From the UHGV virus genome UHGV-1642993: a stretch of 14,446 nucleotides of DNA. One strand, 5' to 3'. Below, piece by piece: positions 1-14,446 of the stretch. How positions within the stretch are numbered: position 1 is the stretch's first letter; each line of letters opens with the position of its first letter. Position numbers and translations under genes: made by a program. Origin of the DNA: a virus. The notes beneath the pieces were generated by a model. It was not told the DNA's origin. It saw nothing but the letters and a program-made list of their open reading frames with translations, and ran no database searches.

Positions 1-45
1 GGTGCTCTGCTCCCGTGGCGGGTTACTCTGCCTGCCTGACCAGCT

Positions 46-171
46 TCACTTCGTCAATACGGTTCTCACTGCACGCTTACGCTCATCAAACTGATCAAAG
101 AAGTTACCCTCTGCCGCTGGAGTTTCCGGTTGAGGGATGGCTTCATCAAATTGGTCGAAGAAATTCGCCAT
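46..171 (-). CDS. Small hypothetical protein (41 aa) with two perfect copies of the octapeptide NFFDQFDE; below the ORF-track size cutoff
   Basis: ATG at 171-169 sits 5 nt after a canonical SD (minus-strand TAAGGAGGGAGTA-ATG) that overlaps the stop of the upstream gene; TGA stop at 48-46. Translation: MANFFDQFDEAIPQPETPAAEGNFFDQFDERKRAVRTVLTK. The two repeat copies differ at 5 synonymous third positions and no nonsynonymous ones. Confidence 0.45.
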   Translation of the reverse strand: MANFFDQFDEAIPQPETPAAEGNFFDQFDERKRAVRTVLTK

Positions 172-181
172 TACTCCCTCC

Positions 182-1489
182 TTATGGGAGATAGCCGTAT
201 TTAGCTTTGAACTGAGACGCTAATGCCGGGTTTGCTTTCAGTGCCTGGATAGCTGCTTCCGGTGCTTGCCCTGTTGTGCCTGCCTTCTGCTGATCCTTCT
301 GTGATTTCCTTTCTGACACATATGTATCGTATCCCTGCGAGCTGTAGCCCATAGATTCAGCTTCGCGGGCCGCCACCTTTTGCAGTACAGAATATTGGCT
401 GCGAATTTCTCCAAGCTGCTTTTTCACCACGTCAGCTGGTTGTGTAACATCGAGGCGGGCGATCAGGTTTTCGAGCTTGCTTCCTTCTGCGTTCGAAAGT
501 GCTCCCAAGCCTCTGAGCATCTGAACGTTCTGAACGAAAGCGCCAGATTTCAGTTCCTCAATAGCGTTTCTGTTTTCCAGCCCTTCAGCAGAGGTCATGG
601 CGTCAGGGTAGCGACCTTCAACCCGACCGACGCCTGCCAGGTCTCCCTTGTTCATCAGAGAGTCAATCTTCTCGATCCCCCTCTCGCCAGTGATTAGCGC
701 TTCGTTATAGCCGTTATTTCCCTCGAGCCACTTTCTGGCCTGCCCCATTCGTGCTCCGGTTGCTGGCTTACCGGTTAAAGGGTCAATTCCTGTAGAGGCG
801 ATTTGAGAGTTTAACGACAGGGTGTCCATGTCCTGAACGTCGCCGTATTTTTTAAGCGCTGCCTGTGACTGCCTGTATACGTATTTATCGTGATTCAGAC
901 GAGCCATCTGAGCGCCATATGAGAGCTGCTGCCCCTGTCGCGTGGTGGCGTTCTGCATGTCAGCCTGGCGGGCGTCCTCCTTAAGTTCAGCTTCTTTCTG
1001 CTGCGCATCTACCTGCTTCTCAATAGGCATCGTTGCGTACATTGACGCTTTCAACAGGGAGCCGAACTGCTGCGGATCGTTATGAGCCATTTGAATGGCT
1101 TCCTGCGGATCAACCCCAAAGCTCATTAGAGCAGGCTTGTTTTGTTCTATCGCGGTCTGAATCATTGCCGGGTTGCCGGTTGCAGCCGCTATAGATATTT
1201 TGTTGAGCGCCTTATTAACAAACGTAGCGTGCTCGGCATCCTGAATGCCTATCTCTTTCTGGATGAGATCTGCAAACTCAGGATGCTGCATGCGCAGCGC
1301 TGGTAAATCCTCCGGCTTGGCATTCTGCAATGCTGTATATGCGGCCTGTTGCCGCTCCTGCTGCTGTGTCGCTGCATCCATCTCCTGAGAGGTTTGACGA
1401 ATTCCCTGAATTGCCCGCCCAGCAGTCAACCCCTGAAGCAACGCCCTGCCAGTTGATGCAGAGTAATCAATAGGTTCGACAACCATCAT
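182..1489 (-). CDS. Internal virion / DNA-ejection protein, P22 gp20-like by position and size (435 aa)
   Basis: Six-frame ORF with SD (GAGGTGA) before ATG-ATG at 1489; Q/A-rich, predicted helical; third gene after the tail needle, as in P22-like gene order 26-14-7-20-16. Assignment is by synteny and composition, not by recalled sequence identity. Confidence 0.6.
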   Translation of the reverse strand: MMVVEPIDYSASTGRALLQGLTAGRAIQGIRQTSQEMDAATQQQERQQAAYTALQNAKPEDLPALRMQHPEFADLIQKEIGIQDAEHATFVNKALNKISIAAATGNPAMIQTAIEQNKPALMSFGVDPQEAIQMAHNDPQQFGSLLKASMYATMPIEKQVDAQQKEAELKEDARQADMQNATTRQGQQLSYGAQMARLNHDKYVYRQSQAALKKYGDVQDMDTLSLNSQIASTGIDPLTGKPATGARMGQARKWLEGNNGYNEALITGERGIEKIDSLMNKGDLAGVGRVEGRYPDAMTSAEGLENRNAIEELKSGAFVQNVQMLRGLGALSNAEGSKLENLIARLDVTQPADVVKKQLGEIRSQYSVLQKVAAREAESMGYSSQGYDTYVSERKSQKDQQKAGTTGQAPEAAIQALKANPALASQFKAKYGYLP

Positions 1490-1502
1490 TCACCTCTAAT
1501 AT

Positions 1503-2099
1503 TTAGAAGAAGCCAGAGGCCACGCCACCAATTTGCATCAGCGAGTTGAAGCCAGATTGCGCCTTACCTGCTTTTGACGCGCCAATCTGGGCCATGTTAT
1601 TGCCATAGGCACTGGAGTAATCTCCAGCGGCGGCGTTGTTAGCACCTGCAGCTGACAGGCCGACGTTAGTCAGACCTAAAAGTTGCCCATACATATTATT
1701 CTGCTGATTGGTCATCATGTTCAGGTAGTTCTGTCCGAGTTGCGGCGCGATTGAACCGAGTAAATTACCCGTTGCCGTAGAGCCGAGACCTCCTGTTGCC
1801 TGTGCGGAGCGTAGAATGCTATTGCGAGCCTGATCTTCCTGCATCCGGTATTCTGGAGATGAAAAGTAATTAGACAAAGATAGATTTCTGTCGATTGGCT
1901 GACCAGCAATCCCCTGCAATCCCTTTAATCCAGAAAGACCAGCATTCAGGAATGGCTCATTTGTTTTTTTCTGATCCTGATAGATATTCCACGCCATTTG
2001 GTTGGAATCTCTCGCCGCACCAACCTGAGCGTCTGCGGCTTTATTGGCCCCGGTAATGCCGCCAACGACAGAATTTAGTGCTTTGCCGACAAAGCTCAT
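1503..2099 (-). CDS. Internal virion / DNA-ejection protein, P22 gp7-like by position (198 aa, Gly/Asn/Ala/Gln-rich)
   Basis: ORF start overlaps the upstream gene stop by 4 nt (2096-2099); low-complexity G/N/A/Q-rich sequence typical of ejection proteins; syntenic position. Confidence 0.55.
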   Translation of the reverse strand: MSFVGKALNSVVGGITGANKAADAQVGAARDSNQMAWNIYQDQKKTNEPFLNAGLSGLKGLQGIAGQPIDRNLSLSNYFSSPEYRMQEDQARNSILRSAQATGGLGSTATGNLLGSIAPQLGQNYLNMMTNQQNNMYGQLLGLTNVGLSAAGANNAAAGDYSSAYGNNMAQIGASKAGKAQSGFNSLMQIGGVASGFF

Positions 2100-2464
2100 A
2101 CGTACCTCACCATTTTAATTACGTTTGTTACGGTTCCATCGAGACGAGCGCCATCAAATTCGCATTCGTGCTCGAATCCCATTTTTCTTGCCAGGTTAGA
2201 GACGCGCCTGTATTGCTCTTCGATAAGCGCGTGAATTTCACGGTTACCGATTAATGCCAGCACATTAGAAACAGCATCCCGGCATCGGTGGCGTTCACCC
2301 GGTTTCATTGCCATGTGCAGGTCTACGTGGTCACCAAAATCCATACAGACGAAGACGCCGACGCCGTTCCAGAGCAGATGGTCACCTTCAACGAGGGGAA
2401 ACGATGGCACACCCCACAGGCGCATTAATCCCTGCCCGGTGAGAGCATCAATTTTTGTGAGCAT
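2096..2464 (-). CDS. Hypothetical virion-assembly protein in the gene-14 position (122 aa)
   Basis: ORF lies directly after the tail-needle gene (2-nt gap) and is coupled to the next gene by a 4-nt overlap; Cys/His-containing, no family recognised by eye. Confidence 0.5.
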   Translation of the reverse strand: MLTKIDALTGQGLMRLWGVPSFPLVEGDHLLWNGVGVFVCMDFGDHVDLHMAMKPGERHRCRDAVSNVLALIGNREIHALIEEQYRRVSNLARKMGFEHECEFDGARLDGTVTNVIKMVRYV

Positions 2465-2466
2465 GA

Positions 2467-3312
2467 TTACTGTTCCGCGATAATTTTGATGGTCGTGGCA
2501 GTGAATGCCGCGCCATTAGCCTTGATTGTTAACGTGCTGCCATTTGTTGCAAGGAAGCCGTTTTTATCAACGCTGAAGAATGTTGAAAGAAGGATATTGC
2601 TGGTAGTCGTTGCGGCATTTCTACTGTCTACCAACGTATCAGGAACCGCGCCAGAGAAGGTTAACTGCATTGATCGGTTAGTTGTTCCACCTGGGAATGT
2701 CCCAACGAGAGAGAGTTTAAAATTTAAAGTCTTGTTCTCGTTGTATACGATCATCTTGTCTGATGTAGTATTGAAGAATGGAGCAAGCGTTCCTGATGTA
2801 GGGGTTAACGCCTTAAGCATCGTAATCAGGTTTGTTGCGGTGGTAGGAATAACCTGTGATATTCCAGTGTAAATAACCTCCGATTTCTTACGTGTGGTGG
2901 CATACTCCAGAGCATCAATACGTGTTTCGTGATCAGCAACCTGTGTTTCAAGGCTAGTTACCCGTGTATCAAGCGATGATATGTTGCTCTCATTCTGGGT
3001 AATCCTAATCTCATGATCGGCTATCGAAACTTCAGCAGCACTAATGCGAGTTTCATGGTCAGCCAGTGTTACTTCTGCTGATGATATACGCTGCTCGTGA
3101 TCGGCAAGAGTGACATCCTGTTCATCGTTCTTAACCTGAGCGTCGTATGCCCCCTGACCAGCATCGTTGGCTTTATTGGCTACGTTGGTGAAGTCAAGCG
3201 CCTGAGACAGAATGTACTGCTGATAGGTTGGAGACAGGCCAATCGGTAGCGTTGATGCGCTAATCCTGATGGCGCTTACGCGAACCGGTGTTTTTAGTGA
3301 GTCATCAGCCAT
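2467..3312 (-). CDS. Tail needle protein (P22 gp26 family) with trimeric coiled-coil repeats and a C-terminal knob-like domain (281 aa)
   Basis: N-terminus (MADDSLKTPV..., KANDAGQGAYDAQVKNDEQDV) matches my recollection of P22 gp26; five tandem 14-residue repeats (VTLADHEQRISSAE-like) follow; a ~130-residue Thr/Asn-rich C-terminal extension is absent from the 233-aa P22 needle and resembles the knob of Sf6-type needles. Start shares 1 nt with the gp10-like stop. Confidence 0.8.
   Translation of the reverse strand: MADDSLKTPVRVSAIRISASTLPIGLSPTYQQYILSQALDFTNVANKANDAGQGAYDAQVKNDEQDVTLADHEQRISSAEVTLADHETRISAAEVSIADHEIRITQNESNISSLDTRVTSLETQVADHETRIDALEYATTRKKSEVIYTGISQVIPTTATNLITMLKALTPTSGTLAPFFNTTSDKMIVYNENKTLNFKLSLVGTFPGGTTNRSMQLTFSGAVPDTLVDSRNAATTTSNILLSTFFSVDKNGFLATNGSTLTIKANGAAFTATTIKIIAEQ
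2905..3114 (-). repeat. Five tandem 42-bp (14-codon) repeats encoding the coiled-coil shaft of the tail needle
   Basis: Protein repeats VTLADHEQRISSAE / VTLADHETRISAAE / VSIADHEIRITQNE / SNISSLDTRVTSLE / TQVADHETRIDALE; matching DNA periodicity (…cgtgatcagc…, …catgatcggc…, …catggtcagc…, …cgtgatcggc…). Confidence 0.6.
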
Positions 3313-4730
3313 TACTCAATCCTCACCGATAAACCGGAAAGCGTCACGGGCGACTTTGTTATCACCCTGAACTTAAAGGCGATGTTCTTTCTGACACGCC
3401 CTACATTTCGCCATATTGCCCGCTGGTCGTATCGGAATGGCGCATTCCATGGAATGAGTTGCTCACGACCAAAGTTGATACCATCCGTCATGGCAGAGAT
3501 AAACATTCGGTCTGCGGTCTGCGCTACTCCTGTTGCTGATTCAAGCTCAAGGTCAAACAACAATGCGTTATCGGCTTTGATAAGTGGCGTATACAACAGG
3601 TGCTCTTGTTGTTTTCCGTATTGACTACTTATTGCCGTATTCAGTTGCCCGGTCACCGCTTCCAGTTTGTCGCCGCAGGTTATCTGATTTCCTTCGAACA
3701 TAAAGTCGATGCCGCGATAAACATCATCATAAAGTCCGGTTTTCAGCACTGACCACTGCGGTCCGTTCTGGCTTGATGATGCGTCATATACGAGCACGTG
3801 ACGTGGAAGATGGATAATCAGCAATTCATGTGAGTCGAAGCGCAAAGGCTCCATAACTGCTGTTGCCAGTTCATCAGCCGTGTACTCACGCAGTGTCTTT
3901 TCAATCAGCGCGGTAGATATTGGCTTTGCTTCACCGGAATCAACGATACAGACAGAAGGTGCACCCGTTGCCTGGTTGGTAATAATTGCGAACGAGCCAA
4001 GGAATGCGCATTTGCAGAACATGCCCGCAATGCCTTTTGGTACCATGTACGCCGGGTTAGCAACGTAGATTGCGCCAGTCTGACCGTCATTTCCCGTCAG
4101 TGAGAAGTACTCGATGGTGGTCGTGCCAAAACAGACGATGAAATCACGCCACGCAGCAATTCCGACAATGCCATCTGGTTGGGACTCTGCCCGCATCATT
4201 GCGCCATAGCGATCCGGGTGTGACTCATCCTGAAGGTCGGAGATAAACCACGAGTCAGTGCCTGATTTCGTCCAGGCATAGTTACCCCGTGACTGACAAA
4301 TGTCACCTGCACTGCCTAATTCATATTGCAGATATCCGCTATTAGCAGGCCAGTTTGTTACCGTTTTAGTTGTGCCGTCATAGAGGTACTGAATCACCTG
4401 ACCGCCGACAACAACAGTCTGACTTGTCCGACTATGCGCCATCGGTACGCGACCGATTCCAGATACGCTGCCGACCTCAGCAGAGCCGCGATACAACTTG
4501 CCACCGCAGACGCGATATACAGCATTCTGAGAGGTGTTGTACTGCGCACCGCGCGATACTCCCGCCACATCTCCACGCTTCTCTATGCCCGGCATAGAGC
4601 GAAGATATCCAGACGCATTCATCACTTCTTTCGCTACTGCCAGCATATTGACTGGAAGCATGTCGATGTAATCAGCGTCTTTCGCGCTTTTACCAAGTCC
4701 ACGCATCAGTGGGATTTGCTGGGTTGGCAT
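3312..4730 (-). CDS. Tail hub / head-completion protein, P22 gp10 homolog (472 aa)
   Basis: Same length as P22 gp10 and extensive recalled similarity (NAVYRVCGGKLY, DSWFI.DL.DESHPDRY, HELLIIHLPRHVLVYDASSSQNGPQW, VITKSPVTLSG); syntenic between the gp4-like and needle genes. Confidence 0.9.
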   Translation of the reverse strand: MPTQQIPLMRGLGKSAKDADYIDMLPVNMLAVAKEVMNASGYLRSMPGIEKRGDVAGVSRGAQYNTSQNAVYRVCGGKLYRGSAEVGSVSGIGRVPMAHSRTSQTVVVGGQVIQYLYDGTTKTVTNWPANSGYLQYELGSAGDICQSRGNYAWTKSGTDSWFISDLQDESHPDRYGAMMRAESQPDGIVGIAAWRDFIVCFGTTTIEYFSLTGNDGQTGAIYVANPAYMVPKGIAGMFCKCAFLGSFAIITNQATGAPSVCIVDSGEAKPISTALIEKTLREYTADELATAVMEPLRFDSHELLIIHLPRHVLVYDASSSQNGPQWSVLKTGLYDDVYRGIDFMFEGNQITCGDKLEAVTGQLNTAISSQYGKQQEHLLYTPLIKADNALLFDLELESATGVAQTADRMFISAMTDGINFGREQLIPWNAPFRYDQRAIWRNVGRVRKNIAFKFRVITKSPVTLSGLSVRIE

Positions 4731-4738
4731 AAATTACC

Positions 4739-5200
4739 TCATGTTGCCGGGTCGTCTTTCTCGATGTAAAAACGGTTCCATGTGAATGCTGATTTGTTAC
4801 CTGAACCTCGAGGCATGTCGTTACGGCGTTCGAGTGGCGGAACGGTGATTAGAGCGATGCAGATTGTCTGATATGCGTCGTCAGCTGCGGTTAACAGGCC
4901 ATCAGGAGCAGGTCGCAGGTTGTCCATGCAGATTTGAACGGCGAGTTTCAGTGATACACCGTCGTTAGCCCACGCTGGAATGCCGGAATCATCATCTGGA
5001 TGTGGCATAACTCCATTTGCTGAGTCTGCAAACTGGTATCCAATTTCAATGCCTTTAACCTGCCACGCAGCCATCATGTCTTCGAGGTCGTTAATAGCAT
5101 CCTCTATAGACTGCGGCTCTGCATCGGTAAGCGTAGCTTTGGAATAAAGACCGGCTTTTCTCAGCGCTTTGAGGACTAAATCACCCTTTGTCTTCGCCAT
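4739..5200 (-). CDS. Tail accessory / head-completion protein, P22 gp4 homolog (153 aa)
   Basis: N-terminus KTKGDLVLKALRK...ATLTD.EPQS..DA..DLE.MMA.W and a C-terminal MPRGSGN motif resemble P22 gp4 as recalled; SD (AAAGGCGGA) before the ATG. Confidence 0.8.
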   Translation of the reverse strand: MAKTKGDLVLKALRKAGLYSKATLTDAEPQSIEDAINDLEDMMAAWQVKGIEIGYQFADSANGVMPHPDDDSGIPAWANDGVSLKLAVQICMDNLRPAPDGLLTAADDAYQTICIALITVPPLERRNDMPRGSGNKSAFTWNRFYIEKDDPAT

Positions 5201-5405
5201 TTTGTTCCGCCTTTGGTTTTGGCCCTGGCTTCTTCTTTGCTGCTGGCTCTGGCTCTGGCTCTGGCAGGACAGTATCGTCTGGATGCTTCACCCAGCCTTT
5301 ATCCAGATGCTCATCCACATCATCCTCATCAACAATGATGTAATCCAGCGAGTGAGGGCCGCAGGTTATCATCGAGCCAAGCTTATAAAGCATTATTTGA
5401 GACAT
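5181..5405 (-). CDS. Small acidic hypothetical protein with PEPEPEP and a Lys/Pro-rich tail (74 aa)
   Basis: ATG at 5405 preceded by GGGAG; sits directly after the coat-gene terminator hairpin; 3' end overlaps the gp4-like start by 20 nt. No recognisable domain. Confidence 0.5.
   Translation of the reverse strand: MSQIMLYKLGSMITCGPHSLDYIIVDEDDVDEHLDKGWVKHPDDTVLPEPEPEPAAKKKPGPKPKAEQNGEDKG
5243..5266. repeat. Hexanucleotide tandem repeat (CTGGCT)x3 plus one variant unit, in frame within the 74-aa ORF
   Basis: Plus strand ctggct-ctggct-ctggct-ctggca; encodes PEPEPEPA on the minus strand. Confidence 0.7.
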
Positions 5406-5416
5406 TGCGTTCTCCC

Positions 5417-5441
5417 AAAAAAGAAGGGGCCGAAGCCCCTT
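5417..5441 (-). terminator. Intrinsic terminator / attenuator directly after the coat gene
   Basis: Minus-strand transcript: AAGGGGC-UUCG-GCCCCUU (7-bp GC-rich stem, UUCG tetraloop) followed by CUUUUUU; begins 3 nt after the coat TAA stop. Confidence 0.65.
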
Positions 5442-5444
5442 AGA

Positions 5445-6704
5445 TTACTGGTTAGCCAGTACCAGGCCGGTAAACTCTGGAACCAATACACTTGCGCCAG
5501 CCAGCGTGGTGAATCGCGTCCACGTCTTACCTGCTTTGGCATCGAACTGGTAAGCCATGATGATGGTCGCCCCCTGCTCGGTAGTTGCCGTCATAACCTG
5601 CGGGCCCTGCCCGGTCGGGAATGCCAGCTTGCCGTACATCAGCTCTACAGAGCCCTCAGCAAAGAAGATGTTGGAAGCCGCAGCCTTCTTGTTGAGAATG
5701 GTGATCGCCGCGTTATTCGCCGGATTGGCGGTAACGTTCTGGTAAGGAATAGACGGCGCATCAGCGTTGTTTGGTGGCAGAATTTTCGGGCTGATGGTAA
5801 CGGTGGTGCCATTTACCGCCAGGACGCGGAATACCTGCGACTGGCCTGTATCCACCTTCTTGATCATGTGGACACTATTAACGCCTGCGATAGTGAATGC
5901 ATCACCAACAGCCAGCACGCCAGCAGTAGACACGGTGATGTCGCCCTGACGGTTATCAGTAGGTGCGCCGTTGGAGTCCATTGCGGTAACTTTATGCGCT
6001 ACTGCGCCACCAAGAGTTACGGCGGTGGCAGAACCTGCCTTCATCGCGCCAGCATAATCAACACGGAAGCTGTCGAAGGATGCCACAGGTGGGATCTGAG
6101 CTTTCTCATACGCCGTCAGCGTTGCGCCAACTGCATATGCGCGAGAGCCAAGCTCTTTAGCCAGGTCTTTGTAGTTGAACGGGTTGTAGAACGCTTTGCG
6201 CTGCCCACCCTGCGGCACACCAATAGAGAGCATCATTGCGTCAATGCCTGCAGATGCGTTCCAGAGGTCTTCGCCGAGAGTATTGCCGGTTGATGCCGAA
6301 CCAATGGTGACCATGTTGGTAGCGCGGGCGGCCACCTCATCGACGATCAGGTTATCAACCCACGCTGCCAGCTGACGACCCGCCGCTTTACCAGCTTGCT
6401 CCTTATGCCATGGATCGCGCATTTCTTTTGCGTCCAGCTCGTAGATAACGTTTTCTGGCTCGCGGAAACGCACAGGTACCTGACGCTGAACGAGTGAGTT
6501 TGCAGTTGCTGCGGTCAGATCTAGGCCGCTAACGGTTTTCAGATGGTAACCTTGAGGGCGATAAACTACGTCGCCTGCGCGTTGCATTTCAGTGTCGCCC
6601 GGGCGGAACTTGCTGCACTCACGGGATACTACGTTTGATGCCTCGAATCCATCAATGACGTTTTCAAATAGGATTTCAAGGTCTTTAGTTAACTGATTAG
6701 GCAT
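5445..6704 (-). CDS. Major capsid (coat) protein, P22-like phage of non-P22 sequence type (419 aa)
   Basis: Large ORF directly after the scaffold gene with SD (CGGAGC) and an A-rich leader, followed by a terminator; size fits Sf6/CUS-3-type coat proteins. Not similar to the P22 coat sequence as I recall it, so the call rests on synteny. Confidence 0.75.
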   Translation of the reverse strand: MPNQLTKDLEILFENVIDGFEASNVVSRECSKFRPGDTEMQRAGDVVYRPQGYHLKTVSGLDLTAATANSLVQRQVPVRFREPENVIYELDAKEMRDPWHKEQAGKAAGRQLAAWVDNLIVDEVAARATNMVTIGSASTGNTLGEDLWNASAGIDAMMLSIGVPQGGQRKAFYNPFNYKDLAKELGSRAYAVGATLTAYEKAQIPPVASFDSFRVDYAGAMKAGSATAVTLGGAVAHKVTAMDSNGAPTDNRQGDITVSTAGVLAVGDAFTIAGVNSVHMIKKVDTGQSQVFRVLAVNGTTVTISPKILPPNNADAPSIPYQNVTANPANNAAITILNKKAAASNIFFAEGSVELMYGKLAFPTGQGPQVMTATTEQGATIIMAYQFDAKAGKTWTRFTTLAGASVLVPEFTGLVLANQ

Positions 6705-6724
6705 ACTTTTTTAGCTCCGATGGA

Positions 6725-7621
6725 TTATTTTTTAGCTTTATTCTTCGCCGCTCGGTATGCGGTGTAATCACCGGTGGCGCGCGCTTTTTCGAGAAGTTTG
6801 TCGAGATTATTAATTGCAGCGCCATTGCTCCCTTTAACCTCAGGAGTGGTAGCGGCTGTTGTTTTTGCTTTAGGCATGATTCTGGCCTTTGATTCGATAC
6901 GTTCCAGCAGACGACCAATTGCTACGGGGTTGGTAGCTTCTGCCAGTTGCTTGCGCAGTTCAGCGTTGCGACCAAGCGCCAGAACAACGATTTCCGGCTT
7001 CTCTGACTCAAACAGGATCGAGTTTTGTGTCTCGATGGGGATTTCCTCGAGTACGGCCTGCTCAGCTTCCTGATAGCCAGGAACTTTGAGAGCCTTAACA
7101 CGTTGCTGATATTTGGATAATCGCTGTTGATAGGCAGCCTGAAGCTCCTGCTCCTTCTGCTTGCGAGCCATCTCCTGTTGCTGGTACTTGCCGTTATCCT
7201 CTGCCCACTTAGCCATGCGTTGCTGGTAGATTTCTTCATCGAAACCGATGTCCTCATCGTCCAGTTTTGGCATTCGCGGTGGTTGAGTGATTACCGGCTG
7301 CTGCTCGACGGGTTTCTGAGACTGACGCATCAGCTCTTTCAGCTCGCGGTCTTTCTCTTTAATCGTCTTGCGCAGGTGTTTTACCAGTCCATGCTCTGCG
7401 CTATCTTCGCTGGTTGGCGAATCCAGCTTTTCGTCACCAAAGTAGAATTCCTGTTCTGATTCGTCGTCATCAGTTTCAGTAGCTTCCTCTGCATCATTGC
7501 CAGAGGACTCACTGCCATCTTCTGTTTCGACTTCTTCAGCCAGTTCGACATCATCAGGAATCTGCTCTGACGCGTCGGTTTCGATTTCAACTTCTGGTGT
7601 GTTTTCTGCCATCTGTTCCAT
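6725..7621 (-). CDS. Scaffolding protein (298 aa)
   Basis: Between portal and coat genes; strongly acidic N-terminus, central charged helical/coiled-coil region (KEKDRELKELMRQ..., QQEMARKQKEQELQAAYQQRLSKYQQRVKALK), basic C-terminal helix-turn-helix-like end (GDYTAYRAAKNKAKK) resembling the coat-binding end of P22 gp8. Confidence 0.75.
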   Translation of the reverse strand: MEQMAENTPEVEIETDASEQIPDDVELAEEVETEDGSESSGNDAEEATETDDDESEQEFYFGDEKLDSPTSEDSAEHGLVKHLRKTIKEKDRELKELMRQSQKPVEQQPVITQPPRMPKLDDEDIGFDEEIYQQRMAKWAEDNGKYQQQEMARKQKEQELQAAYQQRLSKYQQRVKALKVPGYQEAEQAVLEEIPIETQNSILFESEKPEIVVLALGRNAELRKQLAEATNPVAIGRLLERIESKARIMPKAKTTAATTPEVKGSNGAAINNLDKLLEKARATGDYTAYRAAKNKAKK

Positions 7622-7711
7622 TTGTTACCCCTGTTTACTCGATGTTCAGCCCATCGGAAGGCAATAGGGTGCCAGGCCTCATAAAGACAGCCATTGCACG
7701 TTATGGGTTAA

Positions 7712-9916
7712 TTACTGCTGTGGTTGTTGCTGAGTTGATTTTTGCAGGATGCTGCTGATGTCCATGCGCTGCGCATGGCCCTGTGCCTGACTTTTCAGGA
7801 CAAGCTCTGCATCAGCACGGGCATTATCTCCTTGCTGTTGCTGGAACTGTCCGAGCAGTTTCAGCGCCTCACGGATATCAGATTTTTGCTGGCTATCGGC
7901 AGATGCGAGGATTTTCACAACATTTGCCGCAGCAACCTGAGCATCCGTCTGTGCCTGGAATGCTTTAACCTGAATGGCTGCTTGTTCGTTCTGCGCTTTC
8001 TGCAATTCAGCCTGACCAGCAAGAAGCTGACCTTGCGCAGCAACCATAGCCGGATCTGGCTGACTGGCCTGTTGTTGTTTCGCCTGCTCAACCATCTGCT
8101 GTTCTTCTGGTGTTCTCGGCTTAATAACGCCAGACAGAAGCAACTGATTGCGGTTGTATTCTTTAAGGTCGTCCATCCCTTCGCCGTCCATATTGTCGAG
8201 AATCATCGACGATACAAGGTCATGCTTCGGCGTTCCTGGCGGGATAAGTGCCAGCATGGAAAGCAACGACTTAACCGTTGCATCACGGCGAGTAGCGAAC
8301 GACTGACCGACATCGACAGTCACTTCATAGTTACCCTGCGAAAGGTCGTTAAGCGCGATAACCTTCCCTGTCTGACGGTCAACCACTTCACCAGTCATCA
8401 GCGCCACGTCATCGCTGCCATCCTCATTAACGATGCGCATTGGCGTATCGCTGCCATAGACTTCACGAGCCATAGAAAGCCACACGACGCCAGCACGGCG
8501 CATGGATTTAGCCATGTTGTCCATGTAGATATAGGACTGCGTGTCCATCCGGTTAAAGATGCTATCAACGGTATCGGTAGCGACGTTGCTCGGCATGTTC
8601 TCAAGCTGCGACGCACCTGTAATTTGCTGAATAGCCGTTCCGGTGTACTGCAATAGCCCGGCAAGAGCAGGAGGCATTTGTGTCGGAGGTGTCCAGCCAG
8701 CAACCTGAGCCTCTGAAATGACCGTTCCGTTTTTGTCCTTCTTGCTGGTCATGGGAAGAACTGCAGGTCTTTTCTTATTCCTCTCTGCCCAGTGATTCAT
8801 TAATGGACCGGGAATGAAATCAACATCCACGATAGGAATGCCATCACCGCCAGCCTGAGTAGCATTATCTGCAATCATGGAAACCATCAGGTTCTCAAGA
8901 CGCTGTGCATCCATCGCTTTTGCTGCGTGGCCTTCGATTCGCTCCTGATTATCAACAAATGAACGACGCCCATATACCGGGATGAGAGGAATATGTTCGC
9001 CCGGAATACGCTTCGGTTCTTCCAGCCATTCAGCGCCAGACAGAAGACCGCAATAAACTCGGCGTTTCTTCACCGTTCGCTCGCCAATCAGTTCGAATGC
9101 ACCATCGGTCAGCTCGTCGACAATATCTTTGATTTGCTCTTCATCATAGATTGCCGTTTCTCCGCTGACAGGGTTACGCCATGCTGTGAGCTTCACCTTC
9201 TCTATGCGGACTTCGTAGTAGCGTCCAACATAGATGGCATCAGGCGTTGACCAGTCATATTGAGTACCAGTGTCATCACGAGAAAGACTTGCCGCGATGG
9301 AATCAGGGTATTCAGCCTCGAACGCTTTATGCGTCATGGAGAACATTTCCATAGCCCACATAGCATCAGAGCGGTCATATTGCTTGCTGTCCTGATCGAA
9401 GAAAACGCATGTCGCTGGGTCGTAAACAGGAAGAAGGCTGATGCGTCGCTGCTCGTTACTCGGATCCATTTCATCTTCGTAATCGGCACACATGCGGAAA
9501 CAACCGAATCCGCCCGTTACAGCATCATCAAATGCGTTATCACACGCTTCGCCACCGGATGTTTCCTGATAGTCAGCGCGGAATTTGCCGTTCATCTTTT
9601 CGGCTAACGCTTCCGATGCCTTATCGTCCTTAGGCCTGAATTTAACGCTGATGCGATTCTGTCGATACTCGCCAATGATGCGATCACATTCACGGGCAAT
9701 CTTATTCAGTTCAAAGCGCGGGTAATGCTCAAACCTGCCTTCATCAAATGAGTAACCAGCGTTTGTGCTGCCTTCCCACTGTGCGCCGGACACCCGGACG
9801 AAACGTTGAGCCTCAATAATCTGCTCACGCATATCCTTCGTTGCTGACCAGGCATTATCAAAGTTGCACAGCACCTTGCGATGCCAGTCAGTCATCTTTC
9901 TATCATCAGCCATCAT
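7712..9916 (-). CDS. Portal protein (P22 gp1 family, diverged; about 734 aa)
   Basis: Motifs shared with the P22 portal as recalled (KRRRVY, GEHIP..PV.G, PRTPEEQQ, DPAMV.AQGQLLAGQAEL.KAQN helical barrel); the ATG at 9916-9914 overlaps the terminase TGA stop (ATGA) and is preceded by GGAG; the track's TTG at 9928 is less likely. Confidence 0.9.
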   Translation of the reverse strand: MMADDRKMTDWHRKVLCNFDNAWSATKDMREQIIEAQRFVRVSGAQWEGSTNAGYSFDEGRFEHYPRFELNKIARECDRIIGEYRQNRISVKFRPKDDKASEALAEKMNGKFRADYQETSGGEACDNAFDDAVTGGFGCFRMCADYEDEMDPSNEQRRISLLPVYDPATCVFFDQDSKQYDRSDAMWAMEMFSMTHKAFEAEYPDSIAASLSRDDTGTQYDWSTPDAIYVGRYYEVRIEKVKLTAWRNPVSGETAIYDEEQIKDIVDELTDGAFELIGERTVKKRRVYCGLLSGAEWLEEPKRIPGEHIPLIPVYGRRSFVDNQERIEGHAAKAMDAQRLENLMVSMIADNATQAGGDGIPIVDVDFIPGPLMNHWAERNKKRPAVLPMTSKKDKNGTVISEAQVAGWTPPTQMPPALAGLLQYTGTAIQQITGASQLENMPSNVATDTVDSIFNRMDTQSYIYMDNMAKSMRRAGVVWLSMAREVYGSDTPMRIVNEDGSDDVALMTGEVVDRQTGKVIALNDLSQGNYEVTVDVGQSFATRRDATVKSLLSMLALIPPGTPKHDLVSSMILDNMDGEGMDDLKEYNRNQLLLSGVIKPRTPEEQQMVEQAKQQQASQPDPAMVAAQGQLLAGQAELQKAQNEQAAIQVKAFQAQTDAQVAAANVVKILASADSQQKSDIREALKLLGQFQQQQGDNARADAELVLKSQAQGHAQRMDISSILQKSTQQQPQQ

Positions 9917-11409
9917 CCAACTCCGCAAGGTATGTTGTAGCTTGAGTAATCAATCTCTTTAGGATCTTTGATGTCTCGCATCTGTATTGCAAAACGCCTC
10001 ATCATGTAGCCATAGCGAACAGCAGAAAGGATGTCGTCATTTAGCTTGACGATCTTCCCGTTCTCATCGCGGTGATACAGACGAAACTCTTCAAAGAATG
10101 GCTCGCAGGTGTTAAATACCTTGAAACGACCGTCGAGCATCATGTCGCGTATCTCTGCTATCCCGGGTTCGACCGCATTACCTCCATCAGGCCATGTTGC
10201 ATGATCTGGCAACATGTCGAACCCAGCTTCGGCGTATTGTTCCTTGAGCTGAGCGCCGCCTCCCTTTTCGTGCTGATGCCCGTCATGAGGCCAAGCCGTA
10301 GGGGTGTTTTTGCTCCATGCTTTAACAGCACTCCATGCCTCTGTCGCCTTCTTCTGTTTGGCCTTCCAGACGCGAGAAAGATAAATCACGTCCTCGTCTT
10401 TATCCCACCAAAGCTGGATATGTGCCTGTGGGTGATCCCATCCGAAGTCCATTGCATTGATGACGTAGAAGTGATCAGGACACTCGAACGGCTGACACTT
10501 AATCGTCTCTTCCGGTATCTGGAAGATTCGACCGCTACCCATCGTAGGAATACCGCGAGCACGCGCCTCTCTCTCGTGCTCGGGATAGGATGCGATGATT
10601 TGCTCTTTCTGCTCGTCGGTATAGTGCTCAGCATCATAGATGGTCATGTTGACCACTTTCTGCGACTTGCTGGGATTCTTCAGGAACTTGGTAACAACGT
10701 CAGACATCCCCATCAGCGGGGTAAACGTCAGAATTGAGAATTGCCCGTATTTGTTGGTACGGGTAAGACCTTCGCCATAAATGCTGTATGGTGGCTCTTC
10801 GTCAAACCACACGCCGTGGATTGTGTCACCCTGCCAGCGAGCACGGCCTTGAGAGTATGGTTTGAAGTAGCAGATTGAAATGCCATCTTCAACGCCATCA
10901 GCCGTGTGATGCTTAACCAGAAGATGATCAACAAGGTTCGGAAAGAAAGGAGACTTCTTCCAGCTAATGATGTCCTCTTTCGGTATGGAACCGTAGCCAG
11001 GCTCGTCATTCTCTTCGATACGACCGCACAGGATGCGTTGAGTCGTTTTGGTTACAGTCTCGTTTGTCTCGCCACCAATCCAAAAGACAACAGGCTCATA
11101 GAAACGCTTACCTTTCCACTCACCGCCATATTTACCATCAGCAGGATAGCCTTTTGTGCCCGGATAACGCCCTGTAAGGTGAAACGCGACTTCAGCAGCA
11201 CCAGTAAATGACTTACCAAGCTGGTTACCAGCCATAAAACATCGCTCTGGATAGTCATGTCCGGCGTCGATGAACTCACGCTGTTTGCTGTATGGCGTAA
11301 ATTCATATAGCAGGTGTGTGTTCCGGTAGTTCTCTTCTTCTTCGAGTAGCTCGAGCAATTCGATTTGCTCTTCGTCGCTCAGGTTATCAAGAATCGCGTC
11401 CAGTTCCAC
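9913..11409 (-). CDS. terL: Terminase large subunit, P22 gp2-type (498 aa)
   Basis: N-terminus [37 protein letters not shown] and Walker A segment AGNQLGKS match P22 gp2 as recalled; GTG start at 11409 with AAGGAG upstream; overlaps terS by 23 nt. Confidence 0.95.
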
Positions 11410-11881
11410 GGTTGAATAGCTCCTTGATACGAGAGCGCCGCTTATCGCGATCTCCCTTATCAGGTGTCACGTCTTCAACTTGCGACTGCTCTTTGAGGCC
11501 CAAATCACGGGCGATGATGTTAGCGTTGAGAAGGTCAGCGGCTGCGCCAGAGAATTTCTGATCGTAGATGATGTCTTCCGCTCGTGATGTGACGTCAGAA
11601 AAACCTTCCATTGACCGGAAGGTTCCCCATGTTTGCCTGGTGATATCAAGGAAGGTACACAATCCTGAAATAGTCATGGCTCGCATCTTAGGGACATTAG
11701 CCTTAATTATTTCTCCCTGATATGAAAATACCTTGCCCTCCCATAGCGGGTTATCATCAGCCCACTCGAAGTATTCACAACAAGCAGCCCACAGCGCCTC
11801 AGGCGATTCGAATTTAGGGTTTCGCCCATGACTACTGCGGGCCTCCCAAAATCGGTTGCCCTTTGGTGCTGCCATATCCAT
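11387..11881 (-). CDS. terS: Terminase small subunit, P22 gp3-type (162-164 aa)
   Basis: [38 protein letters not shown]... and C-terminal [56 protein letters not shown] match P22 gp3 as recalled; two candidate ATGs (11881, 11875). Confidence 0.9.
11587..11608 (-). other. Candidate pac (packaging initiation) site inside terS, diverged from the P22 pac sequence
   Basis: Minus-strand GAAGGTTTTTCTGACGTCACAT (encoding EGFSDVTS) occupies the position where P22 gene 3 carries its pac site (recalled as GAAGATTTATCTGAAGTCGTTA, encoding EDLSEVV); 14 of 22 positions match. Contains the palindrome TGACGTCA. Confidence 0.4.
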
Positions 11882-11910
11882 CTCACTTATTTGTTATTTC
11901 AGGTTGAGCA

Positions 11911-12153
11911 TCATGCTCCGGTGGTGAACAGGTCTAACGCTTCCTTCGATTTACGTACCGCTTCGATAGTGCGGGTCGTGATATCTGAATTAGCGCCGCC
12001 TGACTGGAAGTGAATTTTGAATAGCTCAAGCTTCAACTCGTCAGTACCAATGAACTGAAATGCTTCCTCTGCGGCTGCGTTCTGGTTCATGACCAGTTTG
12101 TAAATCTCTAACTGGAATTTCTGTTCTTCAGTCATGGGAATAATCTCTGCCAT
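11911..12153 (-). CDS. Small hypothetical protein (80 aa) directly upstream of terS
   Basis: ATG at 12153 with GGAG 8 nt upstream; predicted helical, acidic; same position as the small conserved ORFs that precede gene 3 in P22-like phages. Confidence 0.5.
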   Translation of the reverse strand: MAEIIPMTEEQKFQLEIYKLVMNQNAAAEEAFQFIGTDELKLELFKIHFQSGGANSDITTRTIEAVRKSKEALDLFTTGA

Positions 12154-12256
12154 TGTTGGCTCCGTTTATCCGTTAAAAGGGATATCAGTTAAGTTATCCC
12201 GTGTAGGGTATAAGCCATTATCAAAGCCACTCTGTAGGGAATGGCTTTTGTAATAA

Positions 12257-12514
12257 CTACTTCGTTTTTGCTTCCGCTCTTTTACGGCGGCGCTCTTCTT
12301 TCTTCTCGGCGTTTGCCATGTCCATGAATGCCTGCATGATCGAGTTCCTCATCATGTAACTGACAAAGTGATGATTGACGCAGCCGTTGAGACGGAGTTG
12401 CTCGCCAAACTGATCAACCGAGGCCAGCACTTGCATCATGTCCTTCTCACCTTTCATGAACTCAGAGAAGTCGCGCCCCGCTCTGGAAGCGCATTCAATG
12501 ACGCGATTATTCAT
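12257..12514 (-). CDS. Small hypothetical protein (85 aa) with a basic C-terminal tail (KKEERRRKRAEAKTK)
   Basis: ATG at 12514 overlaps the upstream TGA stop (ATGA coupling); no recognisable domain. Confidence 0.45.
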   Translation of the reverse strand: MNNRVIECASRAGRDFSEFMKGEKDMMQVLASVDQFGEQLRLNGCVNHHFVSYMMRNSIMQAFMDMANAEKKEERRRKRAEAKTK

Positions 12515-13062
12515 CCTGGAAGCCCTGGGATCGTAATCTGCAGCTGGTTAGCCAGGGTATTAATCTCAGCGACCAATACAGGCTTCGTATAACGCCATGC
12601 AGCAAGTCCTTGTCCGCAGAAGCTCGCCATGTCCTTCTTCTGGTCAAACTCATGGCACTTCATGTTGAGCTGCGCACTTAAGCTGTTGCGATGCTGAAGC
12701 TCTCCGGTGAAGTAGTCATCGAGGACCTTATATGCCGCGTACTTGAAACCGGGGTTTAACCAGGCAGCATAATCGTAAGCAACAAACTTCCCGCCATAGG
12801 TTCCGCCGTGTACGCCGCGGGCAGTAAAAACCACAGATTCGTGGTTTTTCTCCAGCTCGGCCAGGAACTCTTTGGTCTGCTTGTTTCGCAGATAGTGGTA
12901 AGGCGATTCAGCATCACTTTTGCCACTGGCTTTCCACATATCGGTGAGGCAGATCATGCCGTCTTCTCCGACACGGATTGGTTGATTGAAGAGGGTTAAT
13001 GATTTCATTTCGCTGATACCTTTTGGTGGTTGAGCCTGTTCTCGTAGATATGGGCAGCCCAA
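12511..13062 (-). CDS. KilA-N-like domain protein (183 aa from TTG at 13062; 165 aa from the internal ATG at 13008)
   Basis: N-terminal segment IRVGEDGMICLTDMWKASGKSD....YLRNKQTKEFLAEL fits the KilA-N DNA-binding pattern as I recall it; first ORF after the lysis-cassette terminator. Confidence 0.5.
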   Translation of the reverse strand: MGCPYLREQAQPPKGISEMKSLTLFNQPIRVGEDGMICLTDMWKASGKSDAESPYHYLRNKQTKEFLAELEKNHESVVFTARGVHGGTYGGKFVAYDYAAWLNPGFKYAAYKVLDDYFTGELQHRNSLSAQLNMKCHEFDQKKDMASFCGQGLAAWRYTKPVLVAEINTLANQLQITIPGLPG

Positions 13063-13157
13063 GAGCGGTCAGCGTTACCACTGCCCTATCTCAAGCTCTA
13101 CCCCGAAAGGCTCTTGGTTGATATGCGCACGAGAATGCGCGGGTTTACTGCAGGCGT

Positions 13158-13181
13158 AAAAAAGCCCCGCTATTGCGAGGC
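13158..13181 (-). terminator. Intrinsic terminator at the end of the lysis cassette, overlapping the Rz1 stop codon
   Basis: Minus-strand transcript: GCCUCGC-AAUA-GCGGGGC (7-bp stem including one G-U pair; the Rz1 UAG stop lies in the loop) followed by UUUUUU. Confidence 0.5.
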
Positions 13182-13493
13182 TCTTGATGATTCGATTTTC
13201 CTGATTGCTGCCTTATCCAGATTGCACTGCCCTAGCGCCGTATAGAGCTGAGCGTTCAACTCCAGACTTGCCTGCCACGTGAACGGAACCGCCATTCCGG
13301 GGATCGGCGTGTCTGCTGTCAGGTCAGCGCTTATCGGCACCACCGGGGCCGGAACGTAAACTGTTTTCGTATTCCCGCAGGCTGTCAGCAGCGGCAGAAG
13401 GAACAAGCTGGTTAGCACACGGATCGCCTTCAAGCGCCTGCCTGATGTAGACAATGCGCGTCTCGCCTTTTTTGGCCAGTTCGTTCTTTGCAT
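13170..13493 (-). CDS. Rz1: Rz1-like o-spanin (outer-membrane lipoprotein), in the +1 frame overlapping the 3' part of Rz
   Basis: Lipobox LLPLLTAC followed by a Pro-rich mature region (VYVPAPVVPISADLTADTPIPGMAVPF). The ORF's ATG at 13493 would give a 39-residue leader; an in-frame TTG at 13433-13431 gives a typical 19-residue lipoprotein signal (MKAIRVLTSLFLLPLLTAC). Confidence 0.7.
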   Translation of the reverse strand: MQRTNWPKKARRALSTSGRRLKAIRVLTSLFLLPLLTACGNTKTVYVPAPVVPISADLTADTPIPGMAVPFTWQASLELNAQLYTALGQCNLDKAAIRKIESSRASQ

Positions 13494-13710
13494 TCTGGGT
13501 AGCCTGTGAGATGTCGCGGATGAGGTTCATCGTGGTGATCACGTTTCTGGTGATCGCCTCCGATGTGTCTGCCCTGACCGTCGCCTTATCGCGCTGGTCT
13601 TTGTAGGTGATGGCGTTGTCGCGGTAGTGGTTTACGAATAAAACCAGCACGCCGATTAACGCCAGCACCAGCAACTGTAGCCAGTAACGCTTAACCAGCG
13701 CGCCAATCAC
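13324..13710 (-). CDS. Rz: Rz-like i-spanin (128 aa)
   Basis: N-terminal signal-anchor TMD (WLQLLVLALIGVLVLFV) then a charged periplasmic helical domain; GTG start overlaps the lysozyme TGA stop (GTGA); directly downstream of the lysozyme gene. Confidence 0.75.
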   Translation of the reverse strand: MIGALVKRYWLQLLVLALIGVLVLFVNHYRDNAITYKDQRDKATVRADTSEAITRNVITTMNLIRDISQATQNAKNELAKKGETRIVYIRQALEGDPCANQLVPSAAADSLREYENSLRSGPGGADKR

Positions 13711-14147
13711 GACAGGAACAGAGCGCGCTCCGCCTCACGCCGACGGGTCAGCCCATTCAGGACCTTGCCACCTGCTTTATTCCAGCGCAGGAACTCATCG
13801 GCTGCGCCAGCGTAATCACCGGCGTTGAGTTTTCGCAGGAGAGTCGATGTCGATAAAGATCGGGCTCCGAGGTTATAGGTGAACGACACCAGGGCGTCGA
13901 ATTGCCCCTGAGTCAGACCAACTTTAACCAGGCGAGACACGTCGCTTTCGTAGCTGACAAGTCCGGTCTTCAACAGGCGCTCTGCCGTTTCCTGATTAAT
14001 TGTCATACCGGCACGGATCGGTTTACCGTCGACAGGCTGAGTCCAGCCATAGCCAATCGTCCACACTCCGACGCTGTCCTGGTACGCGGTAAGCTTGCAG
14101 CCTTCGAACTCTTTGATCAGGGCAATGCCTTTATCACTGGTTTGCAT
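13707..14147 (-). CDS. Endolysin, T4-type lysozyme (glycoside hydrolase family 24), P22 gp19-like (146 aa)
   Basis: Catalytic-region pattern LIKEFEGCKLTAYQDSVGVWTIGYG (Glu, Asp, Thr triad spacing) and C-terminal RRREAERALFLS match the P22 lysozyme as recalled; SD (GGGGA) before ATG; overlaps the holin stop by 14 nt. Confidence 0.9.
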   Translation of the reverse strand: MQTSDKGIALIKEFEGCKLTAYQDSVGVWTIGYGWTQPVDGKPIRAGMTINQETAERLLKTGLVSYESDVSRLVKVGLTQGQFDALVSFTYNLGARSLSTSTLLRKLNAGDYAGAADEFLRWNKAGGKVLNGLTRRREAERALFLS

Positions 14148-14439
14148 TCTTCATCCCCGTCAGACGTTCCCAGAAATAGGTCAGAGCCACGGAGCCCATC
14201 GCCCCGCTAATGCCTGACGTAACCAGAATCATGTAAAGGCTCAGCCCACTTTCAACGCTGATCAGTCCACCAATGAGACCGGTAAAGCCGGACACTGCAA
14301 TTTGTGCCAGCGCATTAATCCAGCTCCAGGTGGCTTTGTTCTGCTTAACGTCAATAAGGTATCGGACCAGGCCGCCCCAGCATGACAGAGCAAGGACAAT
14401 CAGCCATGACACTCCGGCAATGCTTTCTTTATCTTGCAT
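14134..14439 (-). CDS. Putative holin with three predicted transmembrane segments (101 aa; 5' end may lie beyond the window)
   Basis: Three hydrophobic stretches (IAGVSWLIVLALSCWGGLV, WSWINALAQIAVSGFTGLIGGLI, LSLYMILVTSGISGAMGSVALTYFW) and a short charged C-terminus; directly upstream of the lysozyme gene. The reading frame stays open to the window edge. Confidence 0.7.
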   Translation of the reverse strand: MQDKESIAGVSWLIVLALSCWGGLVRYLIDVKQNKATWSWINALAQIAVSGFTGLIGGLISVESGLSLYMILVTSGISGAMGSVALTYFWERLTGMKNANQ

Positions 14440-14446
14440 ACGTTTA

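Follow-up and report, generated by a model that had tools for sequence, protein, structure and literature searches.

The pac site of phage P22 is a 22-bp asymmetric site inside gene 3 (PMC9611059; PMC8022706), which these papers and PMC11260489 trace to Wu, Sampson, Parr & Casjens (2002), used here as relayed by them. The site, GAAGATTTATCTGAAGTCGTTA, was located in the P22 record AF217253, and PMC4837284 is consistent with this sequence. A degenerate expression for sites accepted by P22 terminase in vivo, AA[GC][AG][TC][AT][AT][ATC][TC][TC]T[GT][ACG][ACG][ACG]TC, has been derived from host pseudo-pac sites (PMC11226127), and nine host pac-like sites have been reported alongside native pac and a four-base wobble mutant that is defective (PMC11260489). 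In the plasmid assay of the latter paper, the purF site transduces about 10,000-fold over the empty vector and about 10-fold below native pac. On the protein side, chimeras of the small terminase (TerS) in P22-like phages put DNA specificity in the N-terminal part (PMC9026076), and the same packaging specificity is expected, as a rule of thumb, above 90% TerS identity (PMC2629481). The way in which TerS reads pac has yet to be settled (PMC9611059).

The DNA analysed here (the window; UHGV virus genome UHGV-1642993, 14,446 nucleotides) carries a P22-like (Lederbergvirus) phage late operon on its minus strand, with terS and terL followed by portal, scaffold, coat and head-completion genes. The terS product was matched to Pfam GP3_package (PF16677; E=8.3e-31, above the gathering score) and is 82% identical over 162 aa to crystallised P22 gp3 (PDB 3P9A). 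terL and terS overlap by 23 nt, and the P22 record shows the same 23-nt overlap. A second in-frame ATG at 11881, six bases upstream of the P22-equivalent ATG at 11875, would give a 164-aa TerS; public records of the same allele begin terS at either ATG (query offsets 1, 5 and 7). Directly upstream of terS, 11911-12153 (minus strand) encodes an 80-aa DUF2560 protein (P22 ORF80 equivalent) that is kept in relatives. An AlphaFold single-sequence model of TerS had a mean pLDDT of 49.6, too low to be of use. Residues 78-89 were assigned to a putative DNA-recognition helix from the general TerS model, in which this segment would fall in the N-terminal helix-turn-helix DNA-binding region. Coordinates are collected in Table 1.

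Table 1. Features of the terS region in window coordinates, with the basis of each assignment.
Feature	Position	Strand	Basis
pac-site equivalent, 22 bp	11587..11608	-	direct reading; position as in P22 and ε34; 15/22 identical to P22
17-nt functional core AAGGTTTTTCTGACGTC	11591..11607	-	sole match to the pseudo-pac expression in the window; PWM 23.4 bits
Palindrome TGACGTCA, 8 bp, probably incidental	11590..11597		one occurrence in the window
terS (small terminase, P22 gp3 type), 162 aa	11387..11875	-	ORF list; Pfam; PDB 3P9A
Mosaic cassette inside terS, gene nt 116-315, aa 39-102	11561..11760	-	comparison with P22
Codons 78-89, putative DNA-recognition helix, directly upstream of pac	11609..11644	-	alignments; helix from the general TerS helix-turn-helix model
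terL (large terminase)	9913..11409	-	ORF list; Pfam Terminase_6N and Terminase_6C

Read directly on the minus strand (11608→11587), the reverse complement of the site is GAAGGTTTTTCTGACGTCACAT. It lies in frame (codon phase 0) within the minus-strand ORF 11387-11881, at nt 268-289 of terS counted from the P22-equivalent ATG, and its codons 90-97 encode EGFSDVTS. P22 pac occupies the identical positions of gene 3, where the peptide is EDLSEVVT, and the record of phage ε34 annotates pac there too. The original prediction had placed a pac equivalent inside a P22-type terS at this point; the PF16677 match, the gene position, the ε34 annotation and the wobble selection described below all bear this out. 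It had also relied on the correct P22 pac site, and had counted 14/22 matches to it where the alignment gives 15/22, with mismatches at 22-mer positions 5, 9, 15 and 19-22. Three of these fall at core positions 4, 8 and 14 (A>G, A>T and A>C from P22 to the window), and at 22-mer positions 19-22 the GTTA of P22 is replaced by ACAT. The similarity of GAAGGTTTTTCTGACGTCACAT to P22 pac is read as homology, with no role for chance, since the published pseudo-pac expression has a single match in the 14.4-kb window, both strands included, and that match is this site on this strand.

The divergence that had been predicted for the site was confirmed by alignment with P22 gene 3, and it extends to a larger segment. 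All 29 amino acid differences between TerS and P22 gp3 fall within aa 39-102, which carries pac, as do 68 of the 71 nucleotide differences within gene nt 116-315; nucleotide identity to P22 is 0.98 over nt 1-105, 0.67 over nt 106-300 and 0.97 over nt 301-489. Judged from these alignments, aa 39-102 (55% identical to P22) is a classical mosaic cassette in an otherwise P22-identical gene, with pac near its 3' edge. The putative helix next to pac has R80/Q81/G84 where P22 has L80/E81/R84, and the TerL-binding tail (aa 140-162) is identical to that of P22.

The same cassette is widespread. terS is 99% identical at the nucleotide level to terS of IME10, E212, Bas106 (CurroJimenez), Louie, Dewey, HZ41 and EC.P3, of which Bas106, Dewey, Louie, E212 and IME10 are viable phage isolates, and a match at 95% identity or more is present in about 152 records of complete E. 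coli genomes. The same TerS protein (99-100% identity) was present in 80/80 viral contigs taken from 505 relatives in the collection, and the 22-mer was invariant in these 80 contigs; the absence of polymorphisms, against 1.8 expected, is not significant by itself. By sequence, the window site belongs to a common natural allele, here called the IME10 type, which combines the Q81/G84 helix with GAAGGTTTTTCTGAC. The helix, TRQTWGTFR, recurs in a sister cassette (Emek type), whose pac reads GAAGGCTTTTCTGACATCACCA. The papers on Bas106 and E212 were searched for packaging data, and none were found.

Beyond terS, the best matches among phage records and complete E. coli genomes span only about 5300-12260 of the window, at 92-96% identity, and none of these records covers at least 80% of the window. 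This limited span indicates that the head-completion and ejection genes on the left (1-5300) and the lysis-side genes on the right (12300-14446) are other mosaic modules than those of the nearest relatives. Two metagenomic contigs were also recovered in the homologue search: one binned as a Cellvibrionaceae genome (L095, JAUVQU010000080.1) has a terS 100% identical in protein and 99% identical in nucleotides to the window allele, and one binned as 'Bacillota' (L116, JAEWTL010000052.1) has a terS resembling that of Xenorhabdus. Mis-binning of phage contigs is the probable explanation for both.

In pairwise comparison with P22, pac is not singled out: the 22-mer is 68% identical against a cassette background of 67%, and synonymous codon identity (3/3 in pac vs 9/20 in the rest of the cassette; p about 0.09) is too weak a signal alone. 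Since the 22-mer was no better conserved than its cassette, the comparison was widened to distant homologues. Forty-one loci of the gp3 family were taken from species-representative genomes, spanning Enterobacterales to Paracoccus, Dyadobacter and Rikenella, and were codon-aligned with phage alleles; wobble positions were analysed in 43 homologues, down to 54% nucleotide identity. Codon 95 (GTC/ATC/CTC; Val/Ile/Leu) has a wobble C in 43/43 and ranks first of 124 degenerate codons; codon 90 (GAA) ranks third and codon 91 (GAT/GGT) sixth. The six stretches of six codons with the lowest wobble entropy, out of 122, all begin at codons 90-95. Codon usage in these genes was used as a control. Within pac, Val is encoded by GTC in 27/27 cases, Phe by TTT in 32/32 and Glu by GAA in 31/31, against 20%, 32% and 50% of the respective codons elsewhere; for codon 95 the naive probability under codon usage is about 1e-25, a value not corrected for phylogeny. 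The resulting family-wide DNA motif is GAAG[AG][TC]TT[TA].....[GA]TC, and the window retains all of it. Because wobble conservation is highest in pac and codon usage fails to explain it, the pac equivalent is, on this comparative evidence, selected as DNA beyond coding constraint.

The fit of the window core to sites used by P22 terminase was scored with a position weight matrix (PWM) built from the nine host sites alone, which assumes additivity and describes the tolerance of P22 TerS, not the preference of this TerS. On this scale the window core scored 23.4 bits, native P22 pac 21.2 and the pac-wobble mutant 8.9; functional sites left out one at a time ranged over 12.6-21.2 bits, which the window core exceeds, and the next best 17-mer of the window reached 8.9 bits. 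Each of the bases by which the core departs from P22 (G4, T8 and C14) occurs in several functional host pseudo-pac sites. Two of these bases, G4 and C14, also occur in the purF site, which is identical to the window core at 15/17 positions, as is P22 pseudo-pac site 6 (AAGACTTTTCTGACATC). The four 3' mismatches (22-mer positions 19-22) lie outside the core, where functional host sites share nothing. Eleven of the 12 bases designated important by Wu et al. are kept, as far as the underlining in Table 1 of PMC11260489 can be recovered from plain text, with A>G at core position 4 as the exception; four functional pseudo-pac sites have this G as well. As DNA, the core appears not to be functionally diverged and lies near the consensus of P22 terminase sites.

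With 82% of its residues identical to P22 gp3 over the full length and 55% within aa 39-102, TerS lies below the 90% of the rule of thumb (PMC2629481), so the same specificity cannot be assumed from the protein. At the level of the site, every family-constrained base is kept and the core lies within the sequence envelope used by P22 terminase; for these reasons its specificity probably overlaps that of P22, whose terminase would be expected to use it. From the position, homology, DNA-level constraint and motif fit observed for the site, we infer packaging from it and its cross-recognition by P22. The main reading of the locus is the combination of a functional pac with a specificity overlapping that of P22, to which a probability of roughly 0.65 is assigned.

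Phages Sf6 and ES18 are reported to start packaging without a precise site. A similar state could be imagined here, with the pac equivalent as a relic, packaging starting elsewhere or without a precise site, and the homology to P22 pac persisting merely as coding sequence; that binding of P22 TerS to pac oligonucleotides in vitro has never been demonstrated (PMC8022706) would speak for such a state. It is considered highly improbable, given that in 43 homologues no stretch of wobble positions in the gene is better conserved than that in pac, a pattern for which coding constraint cannot account, that nothing else in the window rises above 8.9 bits, and that TerS and TerL form a pair of P22 type. 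The 22-bp site is, with high confidence from the comparisons above, the functional pac of an E. coli phage or prophage of the P22-like (Lederbergvirus) kind, placed in its own terS.

By homology with P22, a TerS ring would recognise the asymmetric site and would recruit TerL through the C-terminal tail that is identical to that of P22. TerL, a nuclease/ATPase, would then cut within roughly 120 bp around the site, and headful packaging would proceed 5'→3' on the AAGG...TC strand, that is, towards terL, portal and lower window coordinates.

Co-variation between the putative helix and pac was assessed over terS codons 78-97 of gp3-family loci (L095-L134). Across 44 homologues, the bases at the centre of pac co-vary with residues 81 and 84, and do so independently of the backbone of the protein. 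GATTTATCTG is carried by 8/10 alleles that have the P22 residues E81/R84 ('ETWR') and by 0/34 of the others (Fisher 2.5e-7, uncorrected for phylogeny), and the Leu and Ser codons of this class are TTA TCT even in GC-rich Paracoccus, where TTA is rare. The Paracoccus locus L127, only 65% identical to P22, combines E81/R84 with TTATCTG as P22 does; L129 and L130, which are 84-85% identical to L127 outside aa 78-97, have R81 or S81 and other central bases. The window falls in a second class, with Q81/G84 and GG[TC]TTTTCTGAC. Mutations of P22 that give high transduction (HT) map near residue 81. On these alignments, helix and pac centre move or evolve jointly and without dependence on the backbone, which makes a shifted recognition optimum for the cognate TerS plausible; a modest, quantitative shift in preference is possible. 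The co-variation may also stem from linkage within one cassette or from protein-internal coupling, the latter being conceivable because pac itself encodes aa 90-97.

A stronger interpretation would make the IME10-type cassette a co-evolved specificity module, pairing the Q81/G84 helix with GAAGGTTTTTCTGACGTCACA, whose terminase discriminates against P22-type pac, possibly with the converse also holding. The cassette does join the putative recognition helix and pac, at 55% amino acid and about 67% nucleotide identity to P22, and the skew of GATTTATCTG towards E81/R84 alleles (again uncorrected for phylogeny) and the departure of L127 from its close relatives at residue 81 and in the central bases would fit such a module. 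The TerS chimeras, which locate DNA specificity N-terminally (PMC9026076), and the terS-derived pac copies of E. coli islands (described below), which are mostly like the window type (GAAGGTTTTT), point the same way. We nevertheless regard discrimination of this kind as unlikely: the window core has all that P22 terminase is known to need, one natural P22 pseudo-pac site is identical to it at 15/17 positions and to the Emek-type site at 16/17, and the co-variation is open to the explanations by linkage or internal coupling just given. More doubtful still is the general form of the idea, in which residues 80/81/84 of the helix would be matched with the bases at the centre of pac, the pairs defining discrete specificity classes across the gp3 family, E81/R84 with GATTTATCTG and Q81/G84 with GGTTTTTCTGAC. 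If such pairs were real, the window phage and P22 would discriminate each other's DNA, and a widespread family of P4-like E. coli islands, equipped with ejection-protein genes and a window-type pac copy from terS, would exploit exactly the class of the window.

Overlapping specificity with P22 remains the preferred reading. The original prediction had proposed that the otherwise P22-type TerS may recognise a different sequence; the diverged cassette and the co-variation of residues 81 and 84 make a shifted optimum conceivable, but a different recognised sequence is not supported, because the core differences all occur in host sites that P22 uses, the core fits the published expression, and its PWM score exceeds that of native P22 pac. 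The proposed bearing on packaging and transduction is likewise doubtful: the allele is common, its core bases are ones used by P22, and nothing suggests unusual packaging or transduction. The element is well known and this allele of it is ordinary and common; the site is unlikely to mark a change in either process.

The predicted palindrome, TGACGTCA, is present inside the site and occurs once in the window. As a perfect 8-bp palindrome that also recurs in a Tatumella allele (L099), it could be taken for a functional element superimposed on pac, such as the site of a dimeric regulator or a restriction target. This was rejected as extremely improbable on comparison with the sister allele: Emek-type alleles, which encode the nearly identical peptide EGFSDIT, read TGACATCA there. 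P22 pac, moreover, is asymmetric (PMC8022706), the window contains 28 perfect 8-bp palindromes, and this one is the direct outcome of the codons TCT GAC GTC ACA (S-D-V-T). Given its absence from the sister allele, the asymmetry of P22 pac and the number of such palindromes in the window, it is probably incidental.

A terS-derived segment of 107 bp was found in about 484 of 5,426 complete E. coli genomes (about 9%). It covers only terS nt 274-380 of the 495-nt ORF, and the first base of the 22-mer is the exact start of the homology (L082:8001-8107, L083:8001-8107, L138:6100-6210, and about nt 250-360 in L136-L141). The segments sit in islands, often at thrW, with P4-like markers: an integrase, an AlpA-like HTH regulator, an AntA/B antirepressor, a DUF4222 protein, an Ash-domain ORF and a TOPRIM/DUF927 primase. 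Their pac copies read CGAAGGTTTTTGTGGAGTCAC, or in some islands GAAGATTTTT or GAATGTTTTT; they keep the family-wide outer motif and GAAGGTTTTT...GTCAC, and score 14-19 bits on the PWM, within the range of functional pseudo-pac sites. Downstream of the pac-like bases the copies are mosaic, with parts from the window allele (GCGGAAGACATC), the P22 allele (GCAGAACAGGTC) and a third allele (GCAGAGAAAGCC) (L082, L083, L138-L141), which suggests repeated gene conversion or recombination with terS of resident or infecting helper phages. The terS-derived piece runs antisense to an N-terminal extension of the annotated Ash ORF; as the Pfam domain of that ORF covers only aa 124-232, the piece is probably non-coding. 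The idea that a 38-aa ORF, on the plus strand and in the frame of terS, might encode a TerS-mimic peptide was rejected, as the ORF is short and has a GTG start and a stop upstream.

The islands are without psu, delta and sid, and in two strains distant homologues of P22-like ejection proteins follow directly after the primase (L083:1-2300 / L142:14752-18323; L143:3891-9059 in E. coli NC101). These comprise a gp7-like protein (41% identity), a gp20-like protein (27-32% over the N-terminal ~125 aa) and a large protein in the position of gp16, which in one case carries a lytic transglycosylase domain. The same synteny with different alleles in the two strains makes the ejection-like module seem to belong to the island. 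In the described satellites, a PICI and its helper have a segment of 258 bp in common at cos (PMC10111431), and packaging is redirected by Rpp (PMC9026076); a 107-bp terS segment that begins at pac is analogous to such mimicry of a helper packaging signal. By this analogy the island piece may be a pac copy for riding Lederbergvirus (P22-like) helpers. A search of the accessible literature returned no description of such islands. That their homology starts exactly at the 22-mer is an independent hint that the window site is pac.

If overlapping specificity is right, P22-type and IME10-type phages would be predicted by the motif to mobilise each other's DNA and to use the same pseudo-pac sites, which would bear on lateral and generalized transduction in E. 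coli. For the open question of how TerS reads pac (PMC9611059), the wobble conservation and the co-varying pairs offer residues and bases that can be swapped.

Among the known systems, the Salmonella pseudo-pac sites of P22 (PMC11260489 Table 1; PMC11226127) are chromosomal decoys for P22 TerS, whereas the window site is a cognate phage site paired with a different TerS allele; the window core is nonetheless nearer to their consensus than P22 pac is. The pac copies of the P4-like islands have GTGGA where the window has CTGAC. The Emek type shares the Q81/G84 helix and GAAGG.TTTTCTGAC with the window; its pac differs by a C at position 6 and an A at position 16 of the 22-mer, and has no palindrome. 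The pac of the ST64T/ε34 type is a further variant, the ST64T type being only two bases off P22; like the Emek type, it represents natural allelic variation at this one position, and all of these alleles match the functional expression. P22 pac itself shares with the window site the gene family, the position at nt 268-289, the reading phase, the outer elements (GAAG..TT. and.TC) and the central TCTGA, together with the terS-terL overlap and the TerL-binding tail; it differs at core positions 4, 8 and 14, in the four 3' bases, in the encoded peptide and in the helix residues beside it.
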